57,087 nt of DNA from Bacillales bacterium (GCA_021621525.1 JAJVUU010000001.1:1-57087), one strand, 5' to 3'. Shown: positions 19,917 to 37,854, counted from the stretch's first letter. The notes: a model not told the origin generated them from the letters alone. Numbers and translations are program-made.

Positions 19917-20861
19917 TTAATTGGTCTTTCTTGAAAGTTCCTTCTTGAACGACTCGTATTCCATAAATATGACATCCTTATGGAATTCAGCAAGATTGGC
20001 ATGATGTTTCAAATCTTTTACGATCACAATCTGACATATACATGGATTCTTTGTCAGGATGATTCCGTGTTTTTCCATGATCTCCTTCTGTTTCAGAAGG
20101 TCATCGATATATAGGAAGACGACCTCCGGATCCAGGAAGAATACCTTCTGATACAGATTTGGATTATACAGGTTGATATCAAACCTGGCATGGGGTGGAG
20201 CAAAGAACATCTCCGTCTTCTTGGCATGCTGCCTCTTGATTTCCTTTTGCTTCTTCCGAAGGATTTCTTCTTCCTGGAAATGGATGGAATCATCCATGCA
20301 ATCTTTATATTTCTTCAACAGCTCTTCCATACCTAGCTTTGACCGCTTCAGCAGTTCCCTGAAGACTTCCATCGTCATCATGGCATCATCATCGCTTCGA
20401 TGGTATGTATAAGAGGTCAGCCCATATTCCTCGATCAGAGAATCCAATCCCGAAAAGTTGTTCCTTTGATTCAGCTTTTTTTCAAACCTTTGAATGTCAA
20501 AGAAGGAAAAGTCGATGATTGGAAGACCATATCTTCGACAGGAATAGGAAATATAGGAGACATCCTGGAAAACAGCAAAACCGAAGCAAAGCGTATCCTC
20601 ATCTTCGAGGAGGTTCTTGATTTCCTTATAATAATGAGGAAACGTGAATGCCCGCTGGAACTTGAAGAGAGGATAGGCAAGCTTGATTCCCTTACCGACC
20701 CTGGCATTGCCAAGCATGAACTTCGCAGCAGGATCGACCAGGATGTCCTTCTTCTTCAAGACCTTGAAGCTCTCATCGGTAAGGACATAGCCGAACGAAC
20801 AGATCTTTCCTTCTCCGTTCTGGCAGTTTGCACACTCAACATCAAAGAATAGGTATTTCAT
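19917..20861 (-). CDS. DEDDh 3'-5' exonuclease-domain protein
   Basis: 314 aa. The Exo I motif is FFDVECAN and the Exo III-like motif is YHRSDDDAMMT. A basic C-terminal extension follows. Confidence 0.65.
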   Translation of the reverse strand: MKYLFFDVECANCQNGEGKICSFGYVLTDESFKVLKKKDILVDPAAKFMLGNARVGKGIKLAYPLFKFQRAFTFPHYYKEIKNLLEDEDTLCFGFAVFQDVSYISYSCRRYGLPIIDFSFFDIQRFEKKLNQRNNFSGLDSLIEEYGLTSYTYHRSDDDAMMTMEVFRELLKRSKLGMEELLKKYKDCMDDSIHFQEEEILRKKQKEIKRQHAKKTEMFFAPPHARFDINLYNPNLYQKVFFLDPEVVFLYIDDLLKQKEIMEKHGIILTKNPCICQIVIVKDLKHHANLAEFHKDVIFMEYESFKKELSRKTN

Positions 20862-20955
20862 ATCACTTCATTTAAAACCTTAAAAATAGGAATAGCAAGA
20901 GAAAAACAAATATGTTCGCTCTCACCCTTCAGGCAGGCATGCTATAATCATTGCC

Positions 20956-21633
20956 ATGAAGCTCATAGAACGGATTAATCAGGCCAAGGCATGCATCTTC
21001 GACATGGACGGAACGCTTGTCGATTCCCTCTCCATATGGAATGACATCGACGAAACCTTTTTCCATGAGAGAGGCATGGAAGTCCCGAAGGATTATGACA
21101 AGACGATTTCCCATATGTCCTTCATGGAGATGGCAATCTATACCAAAGAGACCTATGGCATCAAGGAAAGTCCCGAGCAAATCTGTCAGATATGGTCAGA
21201 CATGTCAAAGAAAGCCTACCAGGAAACCATAAAGGTCAAGGACGGAGTCATCCCTTTTCTGGAATACCTGAAAAAGAGAGACATGCCTATGTCCTTGGCG
21301 ACGACAAACAAGGAAGAGCTCTACCTCCCCTGCCTGAAAAGGAATCATGTTGATATCTATTTCGACCATATCGAAAACGTCAACCGCCTGAACACCACCA
21401 AAAGAGAACCGAAGATTTATCTTGAACTTTCCAGACGAATGGAAGCAAAGCCAGAGGAAACCCTTGTCTTTGAAGACATCCTGACAGCCATAAAGACGGC
21501 AAAGTCTGCCTCCTTCAAGGTCATCGGCGTCTATGACAGGCAAAACCAGGCCGATTGGAATGAAATCAAAAGCATTTCCGATGACACCATCGACGATTAC
21601 CGGAAACTCATTCTTTCAGATCAATCCATCTAA
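20956..21633 (+). CDS. HAD-superfamily hydrolase (beta-phosphoglucomutase/phosphatase-like)
   Basis: 225 aa. Motif I is CIFDMDGTLVDS, and a later LATT.. motif and a ..FEDI.. motif are present. Confidence 0.75.
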   Translation: MKLIERINQAKACIFDMDGTLVDSLSIWNDIDETFFHERGMEVPKDYDKTISHMSFMEMAIYTKETYGIKESPEQICQIWSDMSKKAYQETIKVKDGVIPFLEYLKKRDMPMSLATTNKEELYLPCLKRNHVDIYFDHIENVNRLNTTKREPKIYLELSRRMEAKPEETLVFEDILTAIKTAKSASFKVIGVYDRQNQADWNEIKSISDDTIDDYRKLILSDQSI

Positions 21634-23908: not shown

Positions 23909-23993
23909 TCAGGGGAGTAATTTATCTTCATCATCCGTCAGCACGCAGAGAGAACTCTGCCGGATGATGACCCATAGCGGTAATGAGACCTGA
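23909..23993 (+). promoter_or_regulatory. yybP-ykoY (Mn2+) riboswitch-like aptamer, copy 2
   Basis: It has GGGGAGTAA (23912..23920) and GGTAATGAGAC (GAGAC at 23985..23989). The closing helix is TCAGG (23909..23913) / CCTGA (23989..23993). An internal 10-bp helix is TCATCATCCG / CGGATGATGA. No terminator is visible downstream. Confidence 0.55.
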
Positions 23994-24012
23994 CAAGAAA
24001 GGAACATCATTC

Positions 24013-26865
24013 ATGAAAAAGAATGAAACAAGGTCCGATAGGACCATAACTTCTTTTCCCTGCCACGCTCAAACCGCTTTTATTGTGGCTGAGGAATATC
24101 AAAGCAATCCCACAGATGGACTGAGTGAGGAAGAAGCCAAGCGAAGACTGAAAGAATACGGCCCGAACAAAATAGAAGAAAAGAAGAAAGCACCTTTCTT
24201 CATCAAGTTTTTAAGACAGTTCAAAGAACCGATGGTCATCGTTCTTCTTCTGGCTTCATTCATCTCTTTTGGTATCTTCCTTGTCAATGGCTTCATCAAT
24301 ATCAGTCAGGGTGCTTCCTTCTTCCTTTCAAAAGACGGAAGGGAAAACACGGAATACATCGATGGAATCGTCATCCTTGCCATCATCTTCCTCAATGCCA
24401 TCATCGGTGCCATCGAAGAGCAGAAATCCGAGCAGTCCCTGAACGCCCTGAAGAAGCTGTCTTCTCCCATCTGCAAGGTAAAAAGAGAAGGAAAGACGCT
24501 TCTTATCAAATCCGAGGATGTCGTCATAGGCGATATCGTGATACTGGAGGAGGGAGACATCCCTCCTGCAGATATAAGACTGTCCTTTTCCCTTGGCCTG
24601 AAATCAGATGAATCCTCATTGACAGGAGAATCTCTTCCCGTAGAAAAGGATGCTGAAATCGTCCTAAAGGAAGATACCTTGATCGCCGAAAGAAGCAACA
24701 TCGTCTACTCCGGCTGTCCGATATCCCAGGGAAGAGGGCAGGGCATCGTCATCCATACCGGTATGGAAAGCGAAGTAGGAAAGATTGCCAGCATGCTAAA
24801 TGATGGCAAAGATGATGAGACACCACTGCAGAAGAAACTATCAAGACTATCAAGACAGCTTGGTCTCATCTGCCTTGGCATCGTCATCATCACATTCCTC
24901 TCAGGACTCCTATGGATCCTTGTCAAAGCCAATCGAAATGGATATGAAAACTTATCCAAAGAAATCCTGTCCCTCTTTGAAGAGGCGATTGCCCTGGCTG
25001 TGGCAGCCATTCCCGAAGGACTTTCAGCCATCGTCACCATCGCCTTGGCCTTGGGTGTCACCAAGATGGTCAAAGCAAACACCATCGTAAGAAAGCTGCC
25101 ATCGGTAGAGACTCTTGGAAGCGTCAACGTCGTCTGCAGTGACAAGACCGGGACACTGACACAGAACAGGATGACGGTAAGAAAAATCTATCTCGACGGA
25201 AAGATAATCGATGCCGAGGATGTCGATAATAAAGAGTCTCTCTTCCTTGCCAAGGGTATGATGCTATGCACGAACGCTTCCATCAAGGATGACAGGATAG
25301 GAGATCCAACGGAAATCGCCCTCCTAGACTTTGCCAGAGCCTTTGGTATGGGAAAGGAAGAGACGGAAAAGCAGGAAAGACGGTTGGATGAACTGCCTTT
25401 CGATTCCGTAAGAAAGATGATGTCGGTCGAAAACGAATGCCAAGGAAGAAAAATCATCTACACCAAAGGTGCACTTGATTCGGTTCTGAAGCATACCACA
25501 AGAATCCAGGAAAAAGGTGTCATCCGTAAAATCACTGCCGAAGACATCAACAGAATCAATATTGCAAACAAAAAACTGGCAGGTAGCGGCTATAGAATCC
25601 TTGCTTTCGGCTATCGCTTTCATGACACCGACGAAAAGATGAAGGAAGAAGACATCATCTTCGTCGGATTTGTCTCCTTGATCGATCCAGAGAGAAAGGA
25701 AGCTGCTCCCGCCGTAAAGAAACTACGTGAAGCAGGAATCCGTACCGTCATGATAACAGGCGACCATCAGGACACTGCCTTTGCCATTGCAAAGAACCTA
25801 GATATTGCAAATGACATCTCCGAGTGCTGCAGCGGAGATGAGCTATCCTCGATGACCCAGGAAGACCTCCGTAGACGGGTCCAGACAGCAAACGTCTTCA
25901 GCAGAGTCTCCCCTCAGGACAAGGTCAATATCGTAAAAGCGCTCAAGGAAGAAGGCAATATCGTCAGCATGACCGGTGATGGCGTCAATGATGCTCCCTC
26001 CCTGAAGGCTGCCGACATCGGCATCGCCATGGGCATCAACGGAACAGATGTAGCCAAAAGTGCAGCCGACATGGTCTTAAGCGATGATAACTTTGCCTCC
26101 ATCGAAAAAGCCGTCGAAGAAGGAAGAAGCATCTACAGCAATATCAAGAAGACCATCTTCTATCTTCTTTCTTCCAACTTCGGGGAAGTCCTGGTCATGT
26201 TCTTCACCTTGCTCCTTGGTTTCCCGACACCGCTTGAAACGTTGCAGATTCTTTGGATCAACCTGATCACGGACTCGCTTCCTGCCATTTCCCTTTGTAT
26301 GTCAGCCAAGGAAAAAGACATCATGAAGCAACAGCCACGGAATCCAAAAGACGGTATCTTCTCCCATGGCGGATTCATATTCACTCTAGGCTATGGTACC
26401 CTCATCTTCTTGATCACATTCGCAGCCTACTTGATTCCCGGTATCCTTGCCTTCAGTGGCTCCAAGGCCTCTTTTGCTTTACAGATAAATGAAAGCTTTG
26501 AAAGAAGCTACCAAGGGTTCATCGCCTGTCTTGAAAACGAAGCCGTCCACAGGCAATGCACGACCTTTGCCTTCTGTGCCTTAGGCCTGTCACAGATTTT
26601 CCATATGCTCGGCATGTGCGACATCAAACAAAGCTTTCTTCATCTCTTCAAAGAAAGGAACATCATGGTTTATATCAGCTTCTTCCTTGGCCTGGCCTTA
26701 CAGATATTCGTTACGGAAGTGCCAGGAATCACGGATGTCTTCTCAACCATATCGCTAAGCTTCTTGGAATGGATGATTTTGATTTCGCTGTCTGTCATTC
26801 CTCTTGTCGTCCATGAAATGTTGGTGCCGTTCTTCAAGAAGCATGACCACCTACGGATCATATGA
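24013..26865 (+). CDS. P-type cation-transporting ATPase, type IIA (Ca2+/Mn2+ pump-like)
   Basis: 950 aa from ATG 24013 (AAAGGAA SD). The motifs are TGES, DKTGTLTQN, MITGDH, TGDGVNDAPSLK and PEGL. The track's ATG at 23983 lies inside the riboswitch. Confidence 0.9.
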   Translation: MKKNETRSDRTITSFPCHAQTAFIVAEEYQSNPTDGLSEEEAKRRLKEYGPNKIEEKKKAPFFIKFLRQFKEPMVIVLLLASFISFGIFLVNGFINISQGASFFLSKDGRENTEYIDGIVILAIIFLNAIIGAIEEQKSEQSLNALKKLSSPICKVKREGKTLLIKSEDVVIGDIVILEEGDIPPADIRLSFSLGLKSDESSLTGESLPVEKDAEIVLKEDTLIAERSNIVYSGCPISQGRGQGIVIHTGMESEVGKIASMLNDGKDDETPLQKKLSRLSRQLGLICLGIVIITFLSGLLWILVKANRNGYENLSKEILSLFEEAIALAVAAIPEGLSAIVTIALALGVTKMVKANTIVRKLPSVETLGSVNVVCSDKTGTLTQNRMTVRKIYLDGKIIDAEDVDNKESLFLAKGMMLCTNASIKDDRIGDPTEIALLDFARAFGMGKEETEKQERRLDELPFDSVRKMMSVENECQGRKIIYTKGALDSVLKHTTRIQEKGVIRKITAEDINRINIANKKLAGSGYRILAFGYRFHDTDEKMKEEDIIFVGFVSLIDPERKEAAPAVKKLREAGIRTVMITGDHQDTAFAIAKNLDIANDISECCSGDELSSMTQEDLRRRVQTANVFSRVSPQDKVNIVKALKEEGNIVSMTGDGVNDAPSLKAADIGIAMGINGTDVAKSAADMVLSDDNFASIEKAVEEGRSIYSNIKKTIFYLLSSNFGEVLVMFFTLLLGFPTPLETLQILWINLITDSLPAISLCMSAKEKDIMKQQPRNPKDGIFSHGGFIFTLGYGTLIFLITFAAYLIPGILAFSGSKASFALQINESFERSYQGFIACLENEAVHRQCTTFAFCALGLSQIFHMLGMCDIKQSFLHLFKERNIMVYISFFLGLALQIFVTEVPGITDVFSTISLSFLEWMILISLSVIPLVVHEMLVPFFKKHDHLRII

Positions 26866-26884: not shown

Positions 26885-27133
26885 TCATTTCCGATATTTT
26901 TCAAGCAATTCGTCCCTTTCGTCTATGTCCTCCACTTCCTTGTAGCCACACTTCAGGAAGTCATGATAACGATCTGAACTTCTTATAAGCCTTCTCTTCT
27001 TCCTAGTCACATAACAGTGAGCTTCAAGAACATTGCCTGAAGGTTTCTTGTATTTGAAGTGCATCTTTGTGAAACGCTTGTGATAGCCCATGCATTCTTC
27101 TTCAAGTTTCCGGTAACATTCAAAAGCTATCAT
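26885..27133 (-). CDS. Hypothetical 82-aa basic Cys/His-rich protein (last gene of the cassette)
   Basis: ATG 27133 has an AAAGGAA SD 6 nt upstream. The sequence is MIAFECYRKLEEECMGYHKRF...EAHCYVTRKKRRLIRSSDRYHDFLKCGY.. with an acidic tail. I recognise no family. Confidence 0.5.
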   Translation of the reverse strand: MIAFECYRKLEEECMGYHKRFTKMHFKYKKPSGNVLEAHCYVTRKKRRLIRSSDRYHDFLKCGYKEVEDIDERDELLEKYRK

Positions 27134-27155
27134 AAAGATTCCTTTCAAAAAGATG

Positions 27156-30100
27156 TCAGCTTCTTGCAACCTGATATACCATCATCTTCCGTTCCAAATA
27201 TAGGGAAAAGAGAACGGTGAACGTCAAAAGGATGAAGTCATCCTGTCTTCCTTTCCTAGGATAATGCTTATGGAATCCATTGGCCATGGAATCGAAGAAG
27301 GTATCACTGAGATTTCCCTGATGTCCCTGATACGTATTGATGAAACGAATGAAGAAACCATCATCCGTATGATAGGCATAGATCAAAAACGCCATCACCA
27401 TCATCAGATTATCCTTGGAAAAGGCAGGATTGTCATCATATTTTTTCAAAAAACGTTTGATATAGACATGCATCGTTGCTTCATTCGGAAGCATCGTTTC
27501 CTTGACAATTCCAATCGGTTTTTTAAAGACGGAACATTCTTGCGAAAGGAGCGAAACCACGGCAGGGCCACTTTCTCCTAAGAAGGACACGATGTCATTG
27601 TATTTTTCATCAAAGAGATTTGTATTCGGATAGACATAGAATCCCTGTGAAAGAAGCCTGCGGCGGTTTTTGCTTTTGTCATATAGACCGGTATAGTTTT
27701 GCTTCTCTACCGAGAACAGATTCACAAAATCCGGAAGCTCATCTTCCAGGAAAGGAAGCTTTCCTTCATAGACGGGGATGTCTTCCTTCTTCAGATCCAT
27801 CTTTCTTTCAAAGAGATACTCATAGAAGGGTTTTCTCATGGCAACAGGAACACCTAGGCAATAGACGACATTCCTGCAACGGATCTTCAAGTCGTAATTA
27901 TGAAGACTCTTGCTCTTAAGCATCTCAAACAAAGCATAGAAATCATCGACATGGTCCTTCAAAATACCAAATCTTCCATCCTTTGTATCGCAAAAGCCGT
28001 AGAAGGAACTTCCCGGAGAAACATAGACCCCCTGATATTCGAAAGAAGAGATATAGGACACGACTTGCTTCCGATGGAACAGATTCTGATCATAGATATG
28101 ATAAAGAGCACAGAGCATCTGCCCGGCAAAGTTGAGAGGAACGTCCATCTCATCATCTTCAAAAATCGTCGAACCATCGACGATGCAGGAAAGGAGGGCA
28201 TTGTTGAACTCCTTCTTATAGATATGATAATAAGGGTTCTCCTTGGCATCGGGAAGACTCGGGCCCAGTCTTCCATCCATTTCCATGGCAAGGAAATCAT
28301 AGTCAAGATACTGCATATAATCTCTCTGATTGTGGGCAGTAAGGATATAAGTCGGACATTCAAGGGATGACTTCAATGTCAGATAGACATCGTTTCTGAA
28401 TCCTTCCTGGAAGACAAAGAGAGAGGAGAGACTCTCATCTTCTGACAGCATCTCGAAATGCCTCGGTTCATCATAAAGAGAGATTCCTTCCTCAAAGGAT
28501 ATATGTTTCAGACATTCCCTCAAAGTCTTTGGATGGTCATCTTGGGAAAAGACATCCGGAAGACCAAGGAAACGGAATTCCGTGGAGTCCTTCGGCAGGG
28601 CAAACCACATCAATTCCTCTCCCATATAATGGACAGGAAACGGGAAGGCTTCCGAAGCAGGGAAGTGCTTCTTATAGATCTTCTGGAGTTCCTTAAGTGC
28701 CTCCAAGTCCCTCTTCTCCATATGAAAAGAGCCATTCTCATCTTCATAGATATAGAAGAATCTTCCTTTATGGACGATAGGATACTTCAGATACGGATCA
28801 TAGAAGACTTCATGGCAATAGGAAAAATACCTGTCAGAATGACATCTTATGCCGCTGACATGATCCTCTGCCTTTTTGGAAAGAGTGACATCCGTACCAA
28901 GGCAAGCCAGAAAGCGCAAGGCAGCAACATCCACGAGAGGATAATTCTCACGGACCTTGATGATACTTTCCCTGGAAGAATAGCCTTCGTTCAGCAAGGC
29001 AAAATAATCTCTGACAGGAAGAAGGATGCCACCTTTTTCCTGCTGGAGGATGAATTTCCTGACAAGGGATAGATAGGGATGACCTTGAAACATCGGGTTG
29101 TTCTTTGCCGCATAGTCTTCCATCTTGGAAAGAGATTCTTCAAAAAGGGAGCACTTACCCTGAACAACAGAAGCATACTTCAATTCCTTCTTCGATGAGA
29201 AATGGAAGAGGAAATCATTGTCGCTAGCTGTGACGATGCATGAAAAGTCAGAAAGGAAGAAGTGATCTTCCTCCATCTTTCTAAGCAGGAAAGGAACCGC
29301 ATAATCAGCATCATCGCATCCTATCGTCGATCCATCCGTCCTGGCAATGGGAAGAAGAAGGCCGATATGTTCGTAATTGACACCATGTTCGAACGAAAAC
29401 AGGCTTAAAAAGGATTTGACGTCTCCGTTTTCAAAGTCAAAATACCTTGCCTTTTCAAAGGCAGGATAAGGAAGGCCGAGAATCTTGAGGAAGACACTCG
29501 GAAGGAAGGCGAATTCAGCATGCCGTTTGAAATATCTCTGAGTGACATCAAAGGCACAGGCTAGCTTTGCCTTTTCGGATACATCCAGAACATAGTCTCT
29601 TGGGAAACTGATTTCTTTGACTTCGTCATCTTCCAAGACGAAAGTACGGTAAGACTTCGCATACATGTCATGGTGCGTTCCAAGATAGACCATCCTATAT
29701 TTCGTCTGGTCTGCCTGGAAGTCATGGTCAAGGACGGTGTGACCAAGTCCGCTTTGAGGACCGAACCTTTCCGTAAAGAAACGGCCAAGGACAATTCTTG
29801 CCAAAGCATAGAAATATCTTCTCAAGGCCATCTTCAGATTCAGTTCGACCCTGTCGATATCCATGGAATTCACTTTGCAAAAGGCATAGGCTGCTTTTTC
29901 TTCAAGGCTCATGGAATCGAGCTTGGCATAGTATTTCTTATAGGCGGCCCTTGTGACGAGGAAGGGATCATCGACAAAGTCCATGATCAGCTTATGAGAG
30001 GTTTCCTTCATCGCCCTTAGATCGACAGGAATCTTATCCTCATGGATATAGAAAGGATAATCGTCGTCATCGACTCTTGGTGATGGATCGACGATTTTTT

Positions 30101-30584
30101 CGATGTTCATCAGATAGAAACCATTTGCCATCAGGTAGTTGACGGCCATGTTCATGAAAGGAGCATTCGACTTGATGTCTTCCTTGCTGATATGCAGGAC
30201 TTCCTTTGTTTCATTCAGGCTTTCCTCGAAGGAAAGCATGGAAAGGATGTCGTCAAAGGAACGGAGCATTTCATTTCCGTTTTGCTTTTCAAAGCAGATT
30301 TCTCTTGGAAGAGATAGAACCTGAAGAACCCTCTCCTCTGAATTCCTACCCTCCATCCACAATCCGATGTTCTTCAGATAGACCGGATATTTTTCTTCCT
30401 TGGCGATATCATTCTGATAGAAGTACATCCTCTCCCGGATGGATTCATATTCTTCCTTGGCGATATGGTATCGTCCGTCATCGGAAACATAGACTGCATA
30501 AAACGGTGTCATGATGACCTTTCCATAGATGCAATCGGTATGTGTCAGGACCTGTTCCTCAAAGAAATCAGAATTATAGTTCAT
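27156..30584 (-). CDS. Hypothetical 1,142-aa protein, giant paralog A (four-module, Cys-poor)
   Basis: The ORF is uninterrupted and its start lies 1 nt after the stop of paralog B. It is collinear with B (shared ESI.E...FYQ, YPVY, VLQVL.LP, DILS.L.F). Core motifs are LSLP 90, LGLP 369, LGLP 673 and LGVP 910. I saw no signal peptide, P-loop or HExxH. Confidence 0.7.
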   Translation of the reverse strand: MNYNSDFFEEQVLTHTDCIYGKVIMTPFYAVYVSDDGRYHIAKEEYESIRERMYFYQNDIAKEEKYPVYLKNIGLWMEGRNSEERVLQVLSLPREICFEKQNGNEMLRSFDDILSMLSFEESLNETKEVLHISKEDIKSNAPFMNMAVNYLMANGFYLMNIEKIVDPSPRVDDDDYPFYIHEDKIPVDLRAMKETSHKLIMDFVDDPFLVTRAAYKKYYAKLDSMSLEEKAAYAFCKVNSMDIDRVELNLKMALRRYFYALARIVLGRFFTERFGPQSGLGHTVLDHDFQADQTKYRMVYLGTHHDMYAKSYRTFVLEDDEVKEISFPRDYVLDVSEKAKLACAFDVTQRYFKRHAEFAFLPSVFLKILGLPYPAFEKARYFDFENGDVKSFLSLFSFEHGVNYEHIGLLLPIARTDGSTIGCDDADYAVPFLLRKMEEDHFFLSDFSCIVTASDNDFLFHFSSKKELKYASVVQGKCSLFEESLSKMEDYAAKNNPMFQGHPYLSLVRKFILQQEKGGILLPVRDYFALLNEGYSSRESIIKVRENYPLVDVAALRFLACLGTDVTLSKKAEDHVSGIRCHSDRYFSYCHEVFYDPYLKYPIVHKGRFFYIYEDENGSFHMEKRDLEALKELQKIYKKHFPASEAFPFPVHYMGEELMWFALPKDSTEFRFLGLPDVFSQDDHPKTLRECLKHISFEEGISLYDEPRHFEMLSEDESLSSLFVFQEGFRNDVYLTLKSSLECPTYILTAHNQRDYMQYLDYDFLAMEMDGRLGPSLPDAKENPYYHIYKKEFNNALLSCIVDGSTIFEDDEMDVPLNFAGQMLCALYHIYDQNLFHRKQVVSYISSFEYQGVYVSPGSSFYGFCDTKDGRFGILKDHVDDFYALFEMLKSKSLHNYDLKIRCRNVVYCLGVPVAMRKPFYEYLFERKMDLKKEDIPVYEGKLPFLEDELPDFVNLFSVEKQNYTGLYDKSKNRRRLLSQGFYVYPNTNLFDEKYNDIVSFLGESGPAVVSLLSQECSVFKKPIGIVKETMLPNEATMHVYIKRFLKKYDDNPAFSKDNLMMVMAFLIYAYHTDDGFFIRFINTYQGHQGNLSDTFFDSMANGFHKHYPRKGRQDDFILLTFTVLFSLYLERKMMVYQVARS

Positions 30585-30585
30585 A

Positions 30586-33500
30586 TTACCTCCCGATGTG
30601 CTTTTCCATCAGCACATATCGTTCTATCAGCTTCTGGCAAAGATATGTCATGAAACCAAGGATCTGCTGTATGACGGCATCCATGAATTCTTTGCGGATT
30701 CTTTTTGTCTGTGGGAAGCAGGCAAGGACTCTGTCCAAGAGACTTCCGTCAGGTTCTTCCGGGAAATAGAAGTTCAGAAACACCCTGTCGTTTTCAAAAT
30801 AGGTATCCATGATGATGCCGCTGGCATAGGCGTTCGCCTCTTCCCTTCCCTTGTTGAGAAGAGAGAAGTCATATAAGAAGTCCTTAAGCTTATCCTTGCC
30901 CATCACAAAGTAGGTGAAGATGGATTCCGGAACCCTTTCGGTAGGATAATCGATGACCGGAAGGTGGTCATCGCCATCCATGTCGAGAGGATAGACATAT
31001 TCCGGATCAAAATGAATGTTCTTCAACGGGAGATTGGACAGGATCAGGAAAGAATCATGCATCATTCCATTGATGGCAAAATCATATTCCGCATCCAGGT
31101 CGGACTGGAAAGGATAAGACTTTTCGAAAGGACGGTGATAGCTTGCTATGGCAGCAGAAGCATCCTTGCGACAGATTCCGTTTTCAAAATCCATCTTGTC
31201 CAAAAGCGGTTCGATGTGATGGTTTTCCAAGGAATAGCCAGAGTATTTCAAGACGACAAGATACGGGAGTCCCAACAGGCCTAAAATCAAAGCCGTCTTG
31301 CAGTCTTCGGAGAAATGCTTCTTCTCATATAGTTCAAGATATTTGTTTCCGAACTCCGCCAGGCTCTTCTTGTCGCAGGAGCAGAGATAGTATTTCCCAT
31401 CGCATGGATTGTCGCTGTAGGCACAATAGGAATGTCCGAGATGGACAAAGGGATGCTTCAAGGCTCCGTTGTAATCAAGATTCATGCTGTATCCGGTCTC
31501 ATCGGGACTGACGATATCCTGGGATACATAAAGGGAATAGGCAAGTTCAAGCCTGCGATAGATATAGACAAGCCTTGTGAAGATCATCAGATTCTGATAA
31601 ATCAGAGGATAATCCTTCTTGTCACATTCAAAGAGAAGTCTGCGGATGGTCTCATCCCCAAGGGAAAGGAATCTCTCCAAGGCAAAATAGAACTCATCAT
31701 ATCCACAGGAATCCGGGAAGAAGGAAGCGATGAGGGATGCGATCATCCTTCTTGAGACATTGATATAGGGAAGGAGGATCGGATCGATTCTCTTGCGGTC
31801 AAAATGAAGGATGCAATGATAGTCTTCAGCCTTGAGGTCGTCAAAGAACATGGTCAAAGCCGAATCCGGATTATCAGCTCCATCATAGAAGAGACCCTTC
31901 AAGGCTGCATTGGAACGGATATAGGTAAGAAAGACCTTCTCCGGGATATCTTCCTGTCCTTCTCCATAATAGGATGGCGTGGCATGGTTGCAGATATGGC
32001 AGACATGGTCCTTGAAAGGAATCTGAGGAAGAATATCCTTGGACAAGTCGATAAGATCCTCGATATCCTCAGGAAGTTCAAGGAAGTCCAGGATATAACG
32101 GTTCTTTTCTTCCGGCGTACCATTCGTATGGAATCTGTCATAGAGAGAAGCAAAATAACCGATCCTTGCAGAAACAGCTTCCTTCTGACAGGAACAGAGA
32201 CACGGCTTTGAAAAATAGTCCTTGCGGAAGGAATATGCTCCCCAATAGAAGGTGACATAAGGAGAGGGGAGGCAAGGTTCATAGGTTTCTTCATTCCTAT
32301 AAAGATTGTCAAGGGCGACAAGGGTGAGCTTATCAGAGTGAAGGATGGCATCGACCCTGGTCTTTTCCTCAGCAATCCTGAAAGGAAAATTCAAAGTATA
32401 GAAAAGGAAATCCTCAAGTTCCTGGCTGGATGATTCCTGGATGTCATATTCCTTGAGGAATCTGTCATAGGCTTCAAGGAAGGTCTTTTTTTGGCTGAAC
32501 AGGGAGTAGAAGAAAAGGAGAGCGGATGAAGAAGACATCTCATCGATCTTCTTAAGCAGCTTTCTCAAGGAATCACCGCTTCCATGAACCATCTCATAGG
32601 AAGGAAGAATCTCTTCCTGCAGGTTCCTTTTCTCATCGAAAAGGGAAAACATGGAATCCCTGCTTCTTTCTTCAACCTTCAATGTAAGGGGAATGTCCTT
32701 CCTCAGATAGACAGGATCCAATGATTCATAGATGATACCCTGGTCGAAGAGGACTCTCCTATCAAAGCAATAGGCATGCTGGCTGCTGGAAGAAAGATAG
32801 GAATAGAAACCATCAAAACGTTTGCAGGAAAGATAGATTTCCTCCATCGGGAAATCACCAAATGGAAGCCTTGAAAGCACATCTTCCTTTGTAAAATCCT
32901 TCAAGTCGGAGATAGAGGCAAAGCCTTCAAAAGGAAGACCCAACCTCGCATAAAAAGATAGGATGCTTTCTTTTGGATTCCGTTCATATTCCTCGGAAAT
33001 AAGTTGAATGATTCTCTCCTTCTCAAGATTAGCAAAAAAGAAGTGTTCGTTGTCAAGCGAATACATATCCGCCTGATAGGAAGACAAGGAATAGACCTTC
33101 CTCTTGACACGGATTTTGTTATACGTCAAAAAAGAAAGCTTCCCGGTGGATATGCCGATGACGTTCAATGAGAAGTCATCATACAAGCAGTTGATGAGAC
33201 TGGCAACATACTTTCTTAAGACCGATTCATATCTCTTCTTGAATCCGGCATCCAACATCAAATCAGAGATTTCCCTGTCGGATGTATGGTTGACAAAATA
33301 AGCGATTCTTCTATCCAGAGAGAAGGAATCCAGACGCTTCATCTCTTGATTGAAGGCTTCGTCATCTTCCTTGCCAAGGATATCGATGGCAAAGCGGGAG
33401 CTATCAGCACTCTGATATAGCTTCAGATAGATACCGGAAAGTTTCTCCTCGTCGATGAATACGGGAAGAGGGATGCCTCTTTCTTCCATAAACGGTTTGG

Positions 33501-33957
33501 TCTCGTCATAAAGGAAGAAGAATCCTTTGGCAAGACAAAAGAGTCGGAACTCATCGGAAAACCATTTCTTTCCTGTCTTTTTGGCAAGAATATGATAGCA
33601 CCTATCCTTTAATTTGGCCGTTCCTCCGACAAAGGGAAGCTGAGAAAGGATATCCTTGGAAAGATCCAGGGTAGAGAAAATCCTTTCCGGAATGCCTAAG
33701 ACCTGGAAGAGGACCTTCGTATCCGTGGCATCCCTGTAAGAGAAAGACTTCCCGTCATAGACAGGATAGGTATGTCCTAGGATTCTCTGCTGATAGAACT
33801 TCAAAGCCTCCTTGATGCTCTCCTTGTCCTCCATAGGAAGATAGGCATGGTCATTCCTATCGATATAGGCAACATGAAAAAGAGAAAAGACAGCCTTCTG
33901 ATAATCGGAGCGGAAGGGAATATCAATGACTTCTTCCTCCAAAGAAGCGATGCTCAT
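30586..33957 (-). CDS. Hypothetical 1,123-aa protein, giant paralog B (four-module, with Cys/His clusters)
   Basis: The ORF is uninterrupted and its start overlaps the M6 gene stop (TGATG). Core motifs are LGIP 87, LGLP 339, LELP 627 and LGLP 895. Cys clusters are C586-x-C588-x-C590 ... C653-x2-C656-x-H658, and C845/C852/C859-x-C861. I saw no signal peptide, P-loop or HExxH. Confidence 0.7.
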   Translation of the reverse strand: MSIASLEEEVIDIPFRSDYQKAVFSLFHVAYIDRNDHAYLPMEDKESIKEALKFYQQRILGHTYPVYDGKSFSYRDATDTKVLFQVLGIPERIFSTLDLSKDILSQLPFVGGTAKLKDRCYHILAKKTGKKWFSDEFRLFCLAKGFFFLYDETKPFMEERGIPLPVFIDEEKLSGIYLKLYQSADSSRFAIDILGKEDDEAFNQEMKRLDSFSLDRRIAYFVNHTSDREISDLMLDAGFKKRYESVLRKYVASLINCLYDDFSLNVIGISTGKLSFLTYNKIRVKRKVYSLSSYQADMYSLDNEHFFFANLEKERIIQLISEEYERNPKESILSFYARLGLPFEGFASISDLKDFTKEDVLSRLPFGDFPMEEIYLSCKRFDGFYSYLSSSSQHAYCFDRRVLFDQGIIYESLDPVYLRKDIPLTLKVEERSRDSMFSLFDEKRNLQEEILPSYEMVHGSGDSLRKLLKKIDEMSSSSALLFFYSLFSQKKTFLEAYDRFLKEYDIQESSSQELEDFLFYTLNFPFRIAEEKTRVDAILHSDKLTLVALDNLYRNEETYEPCLPSPYVTFYWGAYSFRKDYFSKPCLCSCQKEAVSARIGYFASLYDRFHTNGTPEEKNRYILDFLELPEDIEDLIDLSKDILPQIPFKDHVCHICNHATPSYYGEGQEDIPEKVFLTYIRSNAALKGLFYDGADNPDSALTMFFDDLKAEDYHCILHFDRKRIDPILLPYINVSRRMIASLIASFFPDSCGYDEFYFALERFLSLGDETIRRLLFECDKKDYPLIYQNLMIFTRLVYIYRRLELAYSLYVSQDIVSPDETGYSMNLDYNGALKHPFVHLGHSYCAYSDNPCDGKYYLCSCDKKSLAEFGNKYLELYEKKHFSEDCKTALILGLLGLPYLVVLKYSGYSLENHHIEPLLDKMDFENGICRKDASAAIASYHRPFEKSYPFQSDLDAEYDFAINGMMHDSFLILSNLPLKNIHFDPEYVYPLDMDGDDHLPVIDYPTERVPESIFTYFVMGKDKLKDFLYDFSLLNKGREEANAYASGIIMDTYFENDRVFLNFYFPEEPDGSLLDRVLACFPQTKRIRKEFMDAVIQQILGFMTYLCQKLIERYVLMEKHIGR

Positions 33958-35600
33958 CAGAACTCCATGAACTTCAGGCTGCAGCTTGTCGATGTGCTGC
34001 TGACCTGGAAACCGAACTGCGGGAGGCTTCCATCATCGAACATGAAGAAATCATATTTCTGACTGGTGAAGGCATTGCCGCTGCGATAGAGGCATCGGTC
34101 AGAAGAATAACCCGTCTTGCTGCCTTCGACCTTCTTCCCATTGGAAGGGAGAAGAGAGATGAGTCTTCCACGATAGAAACTGAGACCGGAATCGCTCAAT
34201 GACTGGTCATAGCAATAGGTCTTGGTGTTGCTATAGATATAAGAATAGGTATAGGTACGTCCCCAGTTCCTGTCGCTTCCGGGGCTGGGAAGCTTATCAT
34301 AGGCATTGCCATCCCACGAAGCATTGCCCTTGCTATCAGCAACAAGCTTTCCGACTCTTGCATCGACATGATAGACAAGCACACCAGGCTGGGTATACGT
34401 CTTCTGCCTGGAGATTCCATATCCCGTGACGTCCTTCTGGTTGAGGGAAGTCGGTGTATAGAATTCGACGATGAGATACTCATCGAAGGGAGTGCCGTTG
34501 AAATCCATGTTCCCATCCTTATAGCGAGGGATGAGAAGGCTGTCGCCCGTCTCGACAAGAGAGGACAGCGTGATGGTATAGTTGTTTTCCTGAAGATATT
34601 CTTCCGTGACCAGAGTGGGTGTCTTCCAGCCCAAGAGATACTTAGAGAAGGCACAATGGTCTCCGATGTTGAAATCCATCATGTCGATGCCACCGACAGG
34701 GGTATCGGCATTGCCATTGGGCTTGCTTGCAGAATAGTCATAGTCATAGGAATAATAATCATCCAAGCCAAGGATATGTCCCGTCTCATGGATGAATGTG
34801 TGGGCATCGGAATAATTGGCATAGGAAGTGGTCCCCTTCGGACGATAATCCATTTCAGTCAGGAATTTGAAGCTCGCCCAGGAATAGCAGCAAGGCGTGA
34901 CACCATCATAGGAAGAAGCGTCCTGTGCCCAGGTCGTATAAGCCCAGAAAAGCTGGCTTGTCTGACGATAAGGAACGGAATAGACAAGCCATACGGCATC
35001 GATGAAGCCATCCTTGTCCGTATCATAATCGGCAAAATTGATATCCGTATCCTTGTTCAGGGTATTGATGACCTCATCCAAAAGGATATCGGTATAGTTC
35101 ATACCCTTTTCAGAATAGGAATCATTGAGGCTGGAGAGCTTTGAAGAAGTGACGTTTAGATTGATGACGGGAGTGACTTCGCCGCTGACATGAAGTTTCC
35201 CATAGGAAGACTTCTCATAGAAAGAAGAGACGCTCTCCCATCCAGTATCGGAAGAATCACCGAAGAAGCCATGTTCCAAGGTGGTCCTCCAATCGCTTCC
35301 ATAGCTGTCAGAGAAAGTATAGTCCGTCGTTTCGACAGGAACGACCAGGATTTTCCTATCTCCGGTAGATGGCATGTATTTGTAGCCAAGTCCGTATCCG
35401 ACGGTATCCTTGTTGAGATTGTCCTTGCTGAAGGAAGAAGAATAGTCGGGAGTTCCATAGGAAACCTTATCCGTCGTCTTCGTCTCCGTCGAAGGATGGT
35501 TCCAGCTGATACGATAGTTCGGATTCATGAAATAGCAGGAAGAGAGACTGGCAAGAAGACCTAAGGCCGCAAGAACCGCAGTAAACTTTTTCTTTTTCAT
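33957..35600 (-). CDS. Lipoprotein zinc metalloprotease, M6 (immune inhibitor A)-like
   Basis: 547 aa. The signal peptide MKKKKFTAVLAALGLLASLSSC has a lipobox. The zinc motif FIHETGHILGLDDYY maps to codons at 34776..34790. The N-terminal region ..GDRKILVVPVE.. is M6-like. Confidence 0.7.
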   Translation of the reverse strand: MKKKKFTAVLAALGLLASLSSCYFMNPNYRISWNHPSTETKTTDKVSYGTPDYSSSFSKDNLNKDTVGYGLGYKYMPSTGDRKILVVPVETTDYTFSDSYGSDWRTTLEHGFFGDSSDTGWESVSSFYEKSSYGKLHVSGEVTPVINLNVTSSKLSSLNDSYSEKGMNYTDILLDEVINTLNKDTDINFADYDTDKDGFIDAVWLVYSVPYRQTSQLFWAYTTWAQDASSYDGVTPCCYSWASFKFLTEMDYRPKGTTSYANYSDAHTFIHETGHILGLDDYYSYDYDYSASKPNGNADTPVGGIDMMDFNIGDHCAFSKYLLGWKTPTLVTEEYLQENNYTITLSSLVETGDSLLIPRYKDGNMDFNGTPFDEYLIVEFYTPTSLNQKDVTGYGISRQKTYTQPGVLVYHVDARVGKLVADSKGNASWDGNAYDKLPSPGSDRNWGRTYTYSYIYSNTKTYCYDQSLSDSGLSFYRGRLISLLPSNGKKVEGSKTGYSSDRCLYRSGNAFTSQKYDFFMFDDGSLPQFGFQVSSTSTSCSLKFMEF

Positions 35601-35602
35601 CT

Positions 35603-35947
35603 TCAGTCCCCGTAATCAGAGCCACGGCTCTCCGGTTGGATCAGGACCCTGGCCTGATCGGCAACGTCCATGGCGGTGAGATAGATGGCATGTTCCGTCT
35701 CGACAAGAGGATTGTCCTCCATGCCGACAAAGACGACCTTCTTGTTCTTCTTGACGATTTCATCCATCTTTTTGAGCATATCGTCATAAGACTCCGGCCT
35801 TTGCATCTTATATCCCTGAAGATAGGTATAGAACTGAGGCTCGATATAGAAGATAGATCCATCATCATTTTCATAGCATGTGGCAAAGCGATTGCGTAAG
35901 TCGATCAGGATCTTGCGATCCGACCATTCAGGATATTGTTTCGGCAT
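35603..35947 (-). CDS. Hypothetical 114-aa protein (first gene of the cassette; resembles the N-terminal sub-motif of the giant modules)
   Basis: A GGAGG SD lies 8 nt upstream of ATG 35947. The segment CYENDDGSIFYIEPQFYTYLQGY resembles VYVSDDGRYHIAKEEYESI (A) and YIYEDENGSFHMEK (A). The gene ends 2 nt before the M6 gene. Confidence 0.55.
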   Translation of the reverse strand: MPKQYPEWSDRKILIDLRNRFATCYENDDGSIFYIEPQFYTYLQGYKMQRPESYDDMLKKMDEIVKKNKKVVFVGMEDNPLVETEHAIYLTAMDVADQARVLIQPESRGSDYGD

Positions 35948-35973
35948 AGGAATTTCCTCCTTTGTTGTTCATC

Positions 35974-35982
35974 ATTATATCA
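35974..35982 (-). promoter_or_regulatory. Extended -10 promoter (TGATATAAT) internal to the gene string, upstream of the 114-aa gene
   Basis: On the minus strand TGaTATAAT lies about 26 nt upstream of ATG 35947. Just upstream is the hairpin ATGTTTTC / GAAAACAT, which follows the stop of the 124-aa gene. Confidence 0.45.
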
Positions 35983-36022
35983 CCATAAGCATGTTTTCCA
36001 TCGAAAGAAAACATCCTCTTTT

Positions 36023-36397
36023 TCAAATGACAAGAAAACGGCTGATTTCAGCAAACATATCAGAAAGATAGACGAAGTCTCCCTTAAGGCTCTCAAGCCT
36101 CGTTTCTTCCTTCGCCAAAGAAGCAATTTCAGCGATAGACATCAGATCCTCTTTGATGGTATCGTCGATCGTCAAAGTCTTGGAAACATCAAGAATCTTA
36201 TTCTCCGTCTTTTTTATTTCTTCCATCTTGGAAGAAAAATCAAAGGACATGGAATATGGCTTCTTTCCGTTCTGCTTTCTGATAAGCAGTTTCTGAAGCA
36301 TCGATAGAAGAGGCAAAGCAGAAAGAAGAGCCGTATATTTCTCAGACTCCTGAGCTTTCCTTCTCTTTTTCAAGCTGGCATCCAATCCTTTATTCAT
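36023..36397 (-). CDS. Hypothetical 124-aa helical / coiled-coil protein
   Basis: Its start overlaps the stop of the upstream gene by 8 nt. The composition is charged and heptad-like. I recognise no family. Confidence 0.5.
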   Translation of the reverse strand: MNKGLDASLKKRRKAQESEKYTALLSALPLLSMLQKLLIRKQNGKKPYSMSFDFSSKMEEIKKTENKILDVSKTLTIDDTIKEDLMSIAEIASLAKEETRLESLKGDFVYLSDMFAEISRFLVI

Positions 36398-36869
36398 AGG
36401 TGTCTTTCCTTTCCATCGACGAAAGAACGTCGTTTCTCATCCGATAGAAGGATTCTATGACATCCTTTCGTTCGGATAAGACATTCAGATTGTCCTTGGC
36501 AAGAGAAGAGAGAAAAGAGAGATGTCTTTCCAGAAGAGGCAGGAACCTTTCCTTATGAGTAGACTGACAAAGCAAAATAAGCTGTCCAAGATCATCAATC
36601 ACTTCCTCATAGAGATAGAGGATATCATTGATTTCCTTCCATTCTTCATCACTCAACAAGTCCTTTTTTCCAGAAAGGGAAAACAAGTCTCCGTCTTTCT
36701 CACATAAGGAAAGGACATTCTTTTCAAAATCCGGAAAGGCCTTGTCAAAATCACTAATCCCATCCTTGATGGTGCCAAGAAGGACAGACAATGAAAGAAG
36801 ACAGGCGGATCCACAATAATAGTCTGAAGAAGGATCCTTCAGAAGTTGGTTTTTCTGTTCAAGATTCAT
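36390..36869 (-). CDS. Hypothetical 159-aa helical protein
   Basis: It overlaps the sirtuin stop by ATGA. The N-terminal ..YYCGSACLLSLSVLLGT.. faintly recalls the GGSA..L motif of cyclodeaminase/cyclohydrolase (FTCD_C) proteins. That similarity is unverified. Confidence 0.5.
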   Translation of the reverse strand: MNLEQKNQLLKDPSSDYYCGSACLLSLSVLLGTIKDGISDFDKAFPDFEKNVLSLCEKDGDLFSLSGKKDLLSDEEWKEINDILYLYEEVIDDLGQLILLCQSTHKERFLPLLERHLSFLSSLAKDNLNVLSERKDVIESFYRMRNDVLSSMERKDTYE

Positions 36870-37603
36870 ACGTGCAATAGCTCAAAGAGCTCTCCTATTT
36901 TCTGATGGATGACCAGATCGGCATTCAAATCGGCACTGCTGGGATCCTTGTTGATGACAACAAGGTGTTTTCCATGGAAATACTTCACAAAACCAGCAGC
37001 AGGATAGACGACAAGGGAAGTCCCTGCGACAATGAGGACTTCTGCACTTTCAATCAGGACAAGAGCCTTGGTCACATCCATGTCGTTGAGGGCTTCACCA
37101 TAGAGGACCACATCCGGTTTGATGATACCTCCGCAGGAAGGACAATGGGGAACATCCTCCTTATCTTCCTTGATAGCCTTGGCATCAAACATCCTTCCAC
37201 AGTTCTGACAGAAGTTGCGATGCACCGACCCGTGGAGTTCGACGACATTCTTGCTCCCCGCCATCTGATGAAGGCCATCGATATTCTGTGTGATGATGCC
37301 TTTGAGCCTTCTTGCCTTCTCAAGTTCGGCAAGATATAAATGGGCTGCATTGGGTTTTGCATCCAGATTGATCATCCTATCCTTATAGAAACGATAGAAT
37401 TCCTTGGGATTCTGATAAAAGAAAGGAGCCGAGACAATCTCTTCCGGGTCATATCGGTATTCCTGATGATAGAGTCCGTCCTTGCTCCTGAAATCAGGAA
37501 TGCCGGATTCCGTCGACACTCCTGCCCCACCGAAAAAGACGATGTTGTGGCTAGAAGAGATGATGGACTGAAGCTGAAAAGCGTCTTCCTTGATATCTGA
37601 CAT
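36866..37603 (-). CDS. cobB: NAD-dependent protein deacylase (canonical bacterial sirtuin)
   Basis: 245 aa from ATG 37603 (GGAGGG SD). The motifs are GAGVSTESGIPDFRS, TQNIDGLH and the catalytic ELHGS. The Zn ribbon is CQNCG...CPSCGG. Confidence 0.85.
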   Translation of the reverse strand: MSDIKEDAFQLQSIISSSHNIVFFGGAGVSTESGIPDFRSKDGLYHQEYRYDPEEIVSAPFFYQNPKEFYRFYKDRMINLDAKPNAAHLYLAELEKARRLKGIITQNIDGLHQMAGSKNVVELHGSVHRNFCQNCGRMFDAKAIKEDKEDVPHCPSCGGIIKPDVVLYGEALNDMDVTKALVLIESAEVLIVAGTSLVVYPAAGFVKYFHGKHLVVINKDPSSADLNADLVIHQKIGELFELLHV

Positions 37604-37633: not shown

Positions 37634-37854
37634 GTTTTTTTCATGTCGGATATCGACATTCAATAGGATTTTCAAGTCAAATCATGTTTTAGAATCTCAA
37701 AAGGTTTCAGTCCATTCCAAGACAAGACCTGCTTTTTCATTTCGATCAATAAAGCAAAGAAACAGAAGTCCTGCCATATCACATGCCTGTGAAGCGATGA
37801 TTTTTCTATGGATATCGACAGCCGGGCAGAATTTTGTGATAAGATAATACCGGT

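Follow-up and report, generated by a model that had tools for sequence, protein, structure and literature searches.

The minus strand of the 57,087-nt window analysed here, the whole stretch of DNA from a Bacillales bacterium, carries a compact block of genes for two giant proteins, B and A, a lipoprotein zinc metalloprotease resembling the M6 family, a small protein p114 and, upstream of these, a sirtuin (SIR2) and two further small proteins, p159 and p124. This cluster is a real, conserved and wholly uncharacterised system. The full order SIR2-p159-p124-p114-M6-B-A recurs across 27 species representatives and in further metagenome loci, with junctions that overlap or are separated by 1-4 nt, and in one of these loci (L041) the seven genes form one continuous string with no gap. 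The core order p114-M6-B-A is kept in 26 of the 27 species-level loci, and the sirtuin-p159-p124 unit precedes this core in nearly all loci, a sirtuin standing upstream of the cluster in 24 of them. All genes of the cluster lie on the minus strand; coordinates refer to positions in the window and are collected in Table 1. The remainder of the window is made up of housekeeping genes (ATP synthase, SecA, Mfd, TilS, Dus).

An earlier note on this DNA had described a cassette of five minus-strand open reading frames (ORFs), and their coordinates are confirmed in the window sequence, as are the junctions between them: p114 ends 2 nt before the protease gene (TGAagATG), the protease stop and the start of B share one base (TGATG), 1 nt separates B from A, and 22 nt separate A from an 82-aa ORF. 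The idea of a coupled, uncharacterised unit stands, while its extent has to be redrawn, with one gene fewer at the 3' end and three more at the 5' end, because the 82-aa ORF is not conserved and the block consists of a four-gene core and an upstream three-gene sirtuin unit. The 82-aa ORF gave no tblastn match in any related locus (L001-L031) and no family match in Pfam, NCBIfam or PADLOC, and an insertion of ~550 bp together with frameshifting indels breaks it in L033, whose giant A is 92% identical. As no homolog was found and the frame is broken in L033, it was excluded from the cassette; it is probably strain-specific or not a gene. A chance juxtaposition of the other genes finds no support in the gene-neighbourhood survey, since homologs of the giants are linked to the protease and p114 almost everywhere. 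The link between protease and giants, present in 26 of the 27 loci, is nevertheless not obligatory, as L030 contains p114-B-A without the protease.

The earlier note had also given the string its own extended -10 promoter. The box is found at that position, and 28 of 31 loci have a perfect TGnTATAAT at 11-31 nt upstream of p114, a motif with a background frequency of 0.0067 per 120 nt. This conservation identifies p114-M6-B-A as its own transcription unit. No convincing intrinsic terminator was found after giant A, and an Rfam scan of the window returned two tRNAs only and no leader RNA.

Table 1. Genes, promoter and head domains of the cluster, by position in the 57,087-nt window.
Feature	Position	Strand	Remarks
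p114	35603-35947	-	114-aa ORF
M6-like zinc metalloprotease lipoprotein	33957-35600	-	547 aa; lipobox LSSC; HETGHILGLDDYY
Giant B	30586-33957	-	1123 aa; net charge -44
Giant A	27156-30584	-	1142 aa; net charge -37
B head domain 1	33628-33939	-	Residues 7-110; Cys-less; module-3 HMM matches 37-111 at 2e-9; aligns with A by BLASTP
B head domain 2	32857-33150	-	Residues 270-367; degenerate; module-4 HMM matches 292-366 at 2.4e-3; same modelled secondary-structure pattern
B head domain 3	31966-32301	-	Residues 553-664; putative Cys-rich zinc site C588, C590, C653, C656; LGLP-type motif
B head domain 4	31138-31491	-	Residues 823-940; second Cys site C859, C861, C929
Extended -10 promoter (TGATATAAT)	35982-35974	-	26 nt upstream of p114 ATG, followed by GGAGG ribosome-binding site
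Sirtuin	36866-37603	-	245 aa; PF02146 192.9 bits
p159	36390-36869	-	Acidic; 4-nt overlap with sirtuin stop
p124	36023-36397	-	Basic; 8-nt overlap with p159 stop
82-aa ORF	26885-27133	-	Length counted from its ATG
HMM, hidden Markov model.

The two giants had been called clearly homologous, which holds at the level of profiles, where an hhalign comparison of the B and A families gives a probability of 100% (E 1e-40) over 1034 collinear columns and so makes them full-length paralogs. It does not hold for the two sequences as a pair, which are aligned by BLASTP at 23% identity over the N-terminal 270 aa only (E 1e-7). Both giants are without a P-loop, HExxH motif or transmembrane-like segment, as had been seen by eye, and also without a signal peptide; with no export signal, and with repeats recovered by HMMs of the modules, their description as cytoplasmic-looking repeat-containing paralogs is borne out. 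Searches of Pfam, NCBIfam, PADLOC and PDB sequences place them in no characterised family, and no weak match recurs consistently across the members of the B alignment. An AlphaFold2 model of giant B, made from a 25-sequence alignment, has a predicted local distance difference test score (pLDDT) of 90.1 and a predicted template modelling score (pTM) of 0.81, and its comparison with PDB and BFVD by Foldseek gave no match with E below 0.6. With B as the giant that was modelled, and no match to it in PDB or BFVD, the giants would appear to have a fold not seen before.

In the model of B the chain passes four times through the same series of elements, a beta-meander leading into a long helix and then short helices, and a helical region closes each repeat. 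Searches with one HMM per head domain find tandem units of ~280 aa, four in B and three in A, where the head-domain copies lie at residues ~18-123, 293-402 and 590-699; a fourth copy in A may be expected from its collinearity with B. All head domains are acidic, as are both giants. Residues C588, C653, C656 and H654 of B are invariant or nearly so, and the fourth ligand position of head domain 4 is a cysteine in the family consensus and D932 in the window. Giant A, the fastest-evolving gene of the cluster, has no conserved cysteine. The pattern of ligands thus suggests that B keeps two Cys-rich zinc sites and A none.

The head domains connect the giants with other proteins. Residues 567-662 of B match phrog_19778 at 2.5e-5, a weak match and the sole PHROG match among the eight proteins encoded by the cluster and the 82-aa ORF. 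The B profile also recovers, through residues 560-700 only, ~100 short proteins outside the family, of which ~38 possess a C-terminal domain of ~125 aa matching PHROGs annotated as homing, HNH or intron-encoded endonucleases. Neither the head domain nor this nuclease-like domain is recognised by Pfam, and a profile search of PDB with the latter gave nothing useful. In a Clostridium algidicarnis prophage the gene of one relative of the head domain (P0248) directly precedes those of the terminase; a DEAD/DUF6998/AAA_5 operon ends with the gene of another (P0258), and among the relatives one is fused to TerB_N and one to CpXC. P0256, from an Erysipelotrichales/Bacilli metagenome-assembled genome (MAG), is a protein of 580 aa with two head-domain copies and no nuclease, encoded 4 nt upstream of a 615-aa Schlafen-group-3-type helicase (the two together at L034:4222-7815), and may be an evolutionary intermediate between the one-copy phage proteins and the four-copy giants.

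Each unit of the giants opens with a head domain that is homologous to the N-terminal Cys4 zinc domain of the phrog_19778-type proteins. What they share is a beta-meander, a CxC at the start of the long helix, an LGLP motif and then a CxxC. The design of the giants is otherwise distinct. The Cys ligands of the phage-type proteins are conserved in units 3 and 4 of B only, A having lost all of them, and their C-terminal domain (ELDIYI...IEYQGxQH) is absent from B, A and p114. In contrast to the phage-type proteins, the giants have four copies per chain with extra helical regions, are 3-4 times longer and acidic, and belong to a vertically inherited chromosomal locus with no relatives on viral contigs. 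From these sequence comparisons the giants seem to have arisen by fourfold multiplication of a mobile-element domain, with loss of its nuclease partner. Binding of DNA by the head domains was considered on account of the LGLP motif, which is helix-turn-helix-like, and of the homing-endonuclease relatives, and is weakened by the acidity of all head domains and of the giants themselves.

The most conserved protein of the cluster is p114, an acidic protein with an invariant C-terminal Asp. Its homologs fall into 72 clusters, each at least 60% identical to the window protein and all from a single lineage, and it is p114, rather than the protease, that is the most constant partner of the giants. 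An AlphaFold2 model (pLDDT 89.7) shows an alpha/beta fold, for which a Foldseek search of PDB gave no significant match, the best being EcoO109I (E 0.14) and EndoMS (E 0.32) at a probability of at most 0.2. Three identities were tried for p114 and rejected. A PD-(D/E)xK nuclease is not indicated, as the fold matches are not significant and there is no catalytic D...(D/E)xK on the expected strands; a detached nuclease domain is contradicted by hhalign, which gives a probability of 0.1% against the homing-endonuclease-like domain; and hhalign shows no relation to the giants that would make it an extra head domain. Searches with every member of the alignment against Pfam, and searches of NCBIfam and PADLOC, gave no match and no consistent weak match. 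Two p114 homologs, in L039 and L040, lie beside genes for a metallophosphoesterase and a glucose-6-phosphate isomerase and are not preceded by the extended -10 box.

In the protease, the lipobox LSSC and the motif HETGHILGLDDYY by which the earlier note had recognised it are both confirmed. Residues S21, C22, H271, E272, H275, G278 and D281 are invariant in 21 homologs, with L19 present in at least 90%, and the N-terminus MKKKKFTAVLAALGLLASLSSC reads, by inspection rather than from a dedicated predictor, as a signal peptide ending in the lipobox Cys. The M6 domain model TIGR03296 is matched at 7e-19 with 68.8 bits, below its curated cut-off of 110.8, and PF05547 at 7e-4 with 19.3 bits, below its cut-off of 22; as both scores are below the cut-offs, the protein is a distant M6-like protease and not a curated member of either family. 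Its zinc motif aligns to that of snapalysin, HETGHVLGLPDHY, and a profile search found no relative by sequence in PDB. With M6 InhA and M7 snapalysin it shares HExxHxxGxxD with Asp as the third zinc ligand, predicted export and the partial match to TIGR03296. It differs from them in being anchored as a lipoprotein and in having a C-terminal half of ~260 aa without a known family. It is an active-looking, surface-anchored metzincin of M6/M7 type with intact catalytic residues.

The sirtuin gives a full-length match to PF02146 (192.9 bits, cut-off 24), contains CxxC...CxxC and has close matches in PDB (Sir2Af2, 1ma3, 3e-51; Sir2Tm, 1yc5, 6e-49), whereas the defence SIR2 models of PADLOC gave no match, the best being Aga_SIR2 at E 0.012 (11.7 bits). 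It is predicted to be a canonical NAD-dependent protein deacylase and not a SIR2 protein of defence type. Like the bacterial and archaeal sirtuins Sir2Af2, Sir2Tm and CobB, it has a full-length canonical Sir2 domain with a Cys4 zinc ribbon; unlike them, its stop overlaps two lineage-specific small genes and the gene is locked beside the operon of p114 and the giants. We know of no sirtuin operon of this composition that has been described. The longest reading frame would give 269 aa from a TTG at 37675, and the start is probably the ATG at 37603, because the homologs are 245 aa long; a sigma-70-like site (10 of 12 positions) lies just upstream of this ATG at 37656-37628. A SIR2 gene beside very large uncharacterised proteins recalls the defence systems Thoeris (ThsA), DSR1/DSR2, SIR2-HerA and SIR2-pAgo. 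Here, however, a small protein of its own carries the SIR2 domain, which is of housekeeping type, PADLOC gives no match, the distribution is neither patchy nor mobile, and three loci persist without SIR2.

The sirtuin stop overlaps the start of p159 in nearly all loci. Neither p159 nor p124 has a match in Pfam, NCBIfam or PDB. The identity of p159 is 20-45% in most loci, and p124 carries a motif LLxRKQxGKKPY that is also found in the C-terminal half of fused proteins. Such fusions of p159 and p124 into one ORF occur in seven loci, as a protein of 237 aa in L017, L018, L022 and L023 and of 268-269 aa in L019-L021, which indicates that the two small proteins work together.

The sequence between the two units has features of its own. 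In the window a perfect 8-bp inverted repeat (ATGTTTTC, 8 nt, GAAAACAT) occupies 35991-36014, downstream of the p124 stop and ahead of the -10 box; it spans the expected -35 position, is identical in L005, a 96%-identical relative, and might serve as an operator or as a weak terminator for the sirtuin unit. In L020 an IS30-like DDE transposase gene (L020:6692-7822) separates p114 from the p159/p124 gene and directly precedes the conserved promoter of p114, and in L021 a ~570-bp gap with no long ORF occupies the same interval.

The distribution of the cluster is narrow. A scan of 185,579 species-representative genomes yielded the 27 species-level loci, all from MAGs labelled Bacilli, Bacillales, Mollicutes, Erysipelotrichaceae or similar. 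The only one placed by name is 'Candidatus Enterosoma sp.', which has 96% identity to the window and belongs to the order RFN20, family CAG-288, a family predicted to be peptidoglycan-deficient (PMC10868615). Among 5.8 billion proteins, 14 clusters of homologs were found for giant A and 25 for giant B, all of them unnamed MAG proteins. An exhaustive search of 1.84 billion representatives with the B profile gave 192 matches, of which those of at least 900 aa are all A-type or B-type save for one unrelated protein of 3445 aa, and a third giant family was rejected on this ground. No relatives of B or p114 were found on 2.9 million viral contigs, so that a phage or plasmid origin of the cluster was likewise rejected.

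The flanks of the cluster hold recurring genes, for a HAD hydrolase (13 loci), an RNase T-like protein (12), a P-type ATPase in convergent orientation (11; 23983-26865 in the window) and PFOR (10). This recurrence identifies a stable chromosomal neighbourhood and not a mobile island. The locus is vertically inherited, chromosomal and lineage-restricted. Across 22 loci p114 has the highest mean pairwise identity, 0.76, followed by the sirtuin (0.68), the protease (0.54), B (0.40) and A (0.32), and the order and tight coupling of the genes persist down to ~30% identity of the giants. The block is not complete everywhere: the sirtuin is absent from L024, L026 has p114-M6-B-A only, and L030 has p114-B-A only.

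A few neighbours are more local. In 12-13 other loci the sirtuin has the RNase T-like and HAD hydrolase genes as its immediate neighbours; in the window, where they occupy 19917-21633, and in L033 they lie beyond the P-type ATPase, which points to a local rearrangement among these close relatives. An AAA_14/DUF4143 ATPase gene at 924-2165 on the minus strand of the window adjoins tRNA-Ser and tRNA-Val, and L026 has the gene for a similar protein directly before p114. A pair of genes for an AAA_21/AAA_15 ATPase and RloB (L001:17068-18925), which is OLD/abortive-infection-like, follows giant A directly in a single genome, UW_DM_BACIL1_1.

The reading of these proteins depends on the genetic code, as AGG is read as Met in a clade of the genus UBA7642/Enterosoma (Shulgina and Eddy). 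In the window the AGG codons align with invariant Arg columns, so that the standard code (table 11) is valid there and an alternative code was rejected. In L019-L021 (HGM10888, UBA4682, UBA784) the alignment columns that hold AGG codons are conserved for Met, Leu or Ile (e.g. 8 Met, 4-6 Leu), and in the cluster genes of these three loci AGG is ~5-10 times commoner than in most others. This pattern agrees with the published reassignment of AGG to Met, and the cluster occurs in that clade too.

The earlier note had found that the arrangement matched no known operon type, and this remains so for a cluster that is now seen to be conserved and without a match to any known system. We tentatively favour, as possible and still short of probable, a reading in which a cytoplasmic scaffold that is large, acidic, non-enzymatic and vertically inherited is built of B and A and likely also of p114, the protease being merely co-expressed and the sirtuin unit perhaps having a regulatory role. 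B and A would probably form a heterodimer, probably together with the highly constrained p114, giving a large binding scaffold in the cytoplasm whose recognition domains would have been recruited from a mobile-element protein. The lipoprotein protease would act outside the cell and only share expression with the scaffold, on which the sirtuin unit may act as a regulator through deacylation. Given the acidity of all head domains, a protein or a basic partner is a more likely ligand than naked nucleic acid. We lean towards a lineage-specific housekeeping or structural function over defence.

Several observations weigh against this scaffold. The relatives of its head domains occur in nuclease, helicase and prophage contexts, which point to nucleic-acid conflict over housekeeping. 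The most divergent p114 homologs, with 62% identity (L039:359-709 and L040:69-419), have no adjacent giants or protease, so that p114 may act independently. Correlations of pairwise identity between the genes of the cluster are only moderate, that of the protease with B being 0.38, and we infer an assembly of B, A and p114 solely from their co-inheritance and coupling.

The contexts of the head-domain relatives belong to a different proposal, that of an anti-phage or conflict system in which the giants would be multivalent sensors built from a phage-derived domain, with the sirtuin, through consumption of NAD+, the protease or both as effectors. The homing-endonuclease-like phage proteins beside terminase, the relatives beside a Schlafen-type helicase, within the DEAD/AAA_5 operon or fused to TerB_N or CpXC, the nearly constant SIR2 neighbour and the AAA_21 and RloB genes downstream of the cluster in L001 would all suit such a system. 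The sirtuin itself does not, being a canonical deacylase with a zinc ribbon (Sir2Af2, 3e-51) and no PADLOC SIR2 match; none of the eight proteins matches PADLOC at all, and L024, L026 and L030 lack the sirtuin, the last also lacking the protease. Vertical inheritance within a single lineage, stable flanks and absence from viral contigs are equally out of keeping with a conflict system, as is a set of B-profile matches in which those of at least 900 aa are, save for the unrelated 3445-aa protein, A- or B-type giants. We therefore regard a conflict system as rather unlikely. Less likely again, and in our view quite unlikely, is a single system of protease and giants, in which the giants would serve the exported M6 protease as substrates, pro-forms, regulators or metal-binding scaffold. 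Their genes are coupled in 26 of the 27 loci, the protease stop overlaps the start of B in the window, and B has conserved zinc-type Cys sites. The invariant lipobox, however, places the protease outside the cell, whereas the giants have neither signal peptide nor transmembrane segment; L030 retains p114-B-A without the protease, and identities of protease and B are correlated at 0.38 only. The suggestion of the earlier note that the protease stands with its substrates or regulators accordingly finds nothing beyond co-transcription in its favour, the lipoprotein being extracellular and the giants having no export signal.

It may also be that the genes are functionally unrelated and share an operon by descent, the giants being a lineage-specific pair with a structural or cytoskeletal role, the protease an enzyme of nutrition or host interaction and the sirtuin the general deacetylase of the cell. 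Separate losses would be expected in that case, and they are seen for the sirtuin (L024, L026, L030), for the protease (L030) and for giants beside p114 (L039, L040); rates of evolution differ widely, with mean identities from 0.76 to 0.32, and L020 tolerates the IS30-like insertion that parts the two units. Against this, order and coupling are kept down to ~30% identity of the giants while the flanks rearrange, and the seven genes of L041 stand in one uninterrupted string. On balance we consider a shared operon of unrelated genes unlikely, if less so than a conflict system. The cytoplasmic scaffold can also be drawn more boldly: B, A and p114 would form a cytoskeleton-like or nucleoid- or membrane-organising scaffold of a kind not seen before, made of eight domesticated homing-endonuclease recognition domains, tuned by the sirtuin and co-expressed with a surface protease in the predicted wall-less RFN20/CAG-288 bacteria. 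So specific a picture is improbable, to about the same degree as a conflict system.

The absence of a fold match for confident models makes the giants good targets for structural work, all the lineage-specific proteins of the block being unannotated. The link to phrog_19778 opens a first way into a phage domain that is widespread yet absent from Pfam, and offers a case of a mobile-element domain duplicated into a giant cellular protein. Should the cluster prove to be a conflict system, it would represent a new defence architecture fixed across a whole bacterial family; should the scaffold of domesticated domains prove true, it would mean a new fold and a new cellular machine, in which a domain of a selfish element has been multiplied into a core structural protein of a reduced genome. 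Candidatus Enterosoma and related bacteria of the human, chicken, ruminant and baboon gut are common and uncultured, have small genomes and are predicted to be wall-less. That a block of ~10.7 kb survives genome reduction in these organisms, keeps its order and carries a very constrained small protein suggests that it is likely to matter to the biology of its host.

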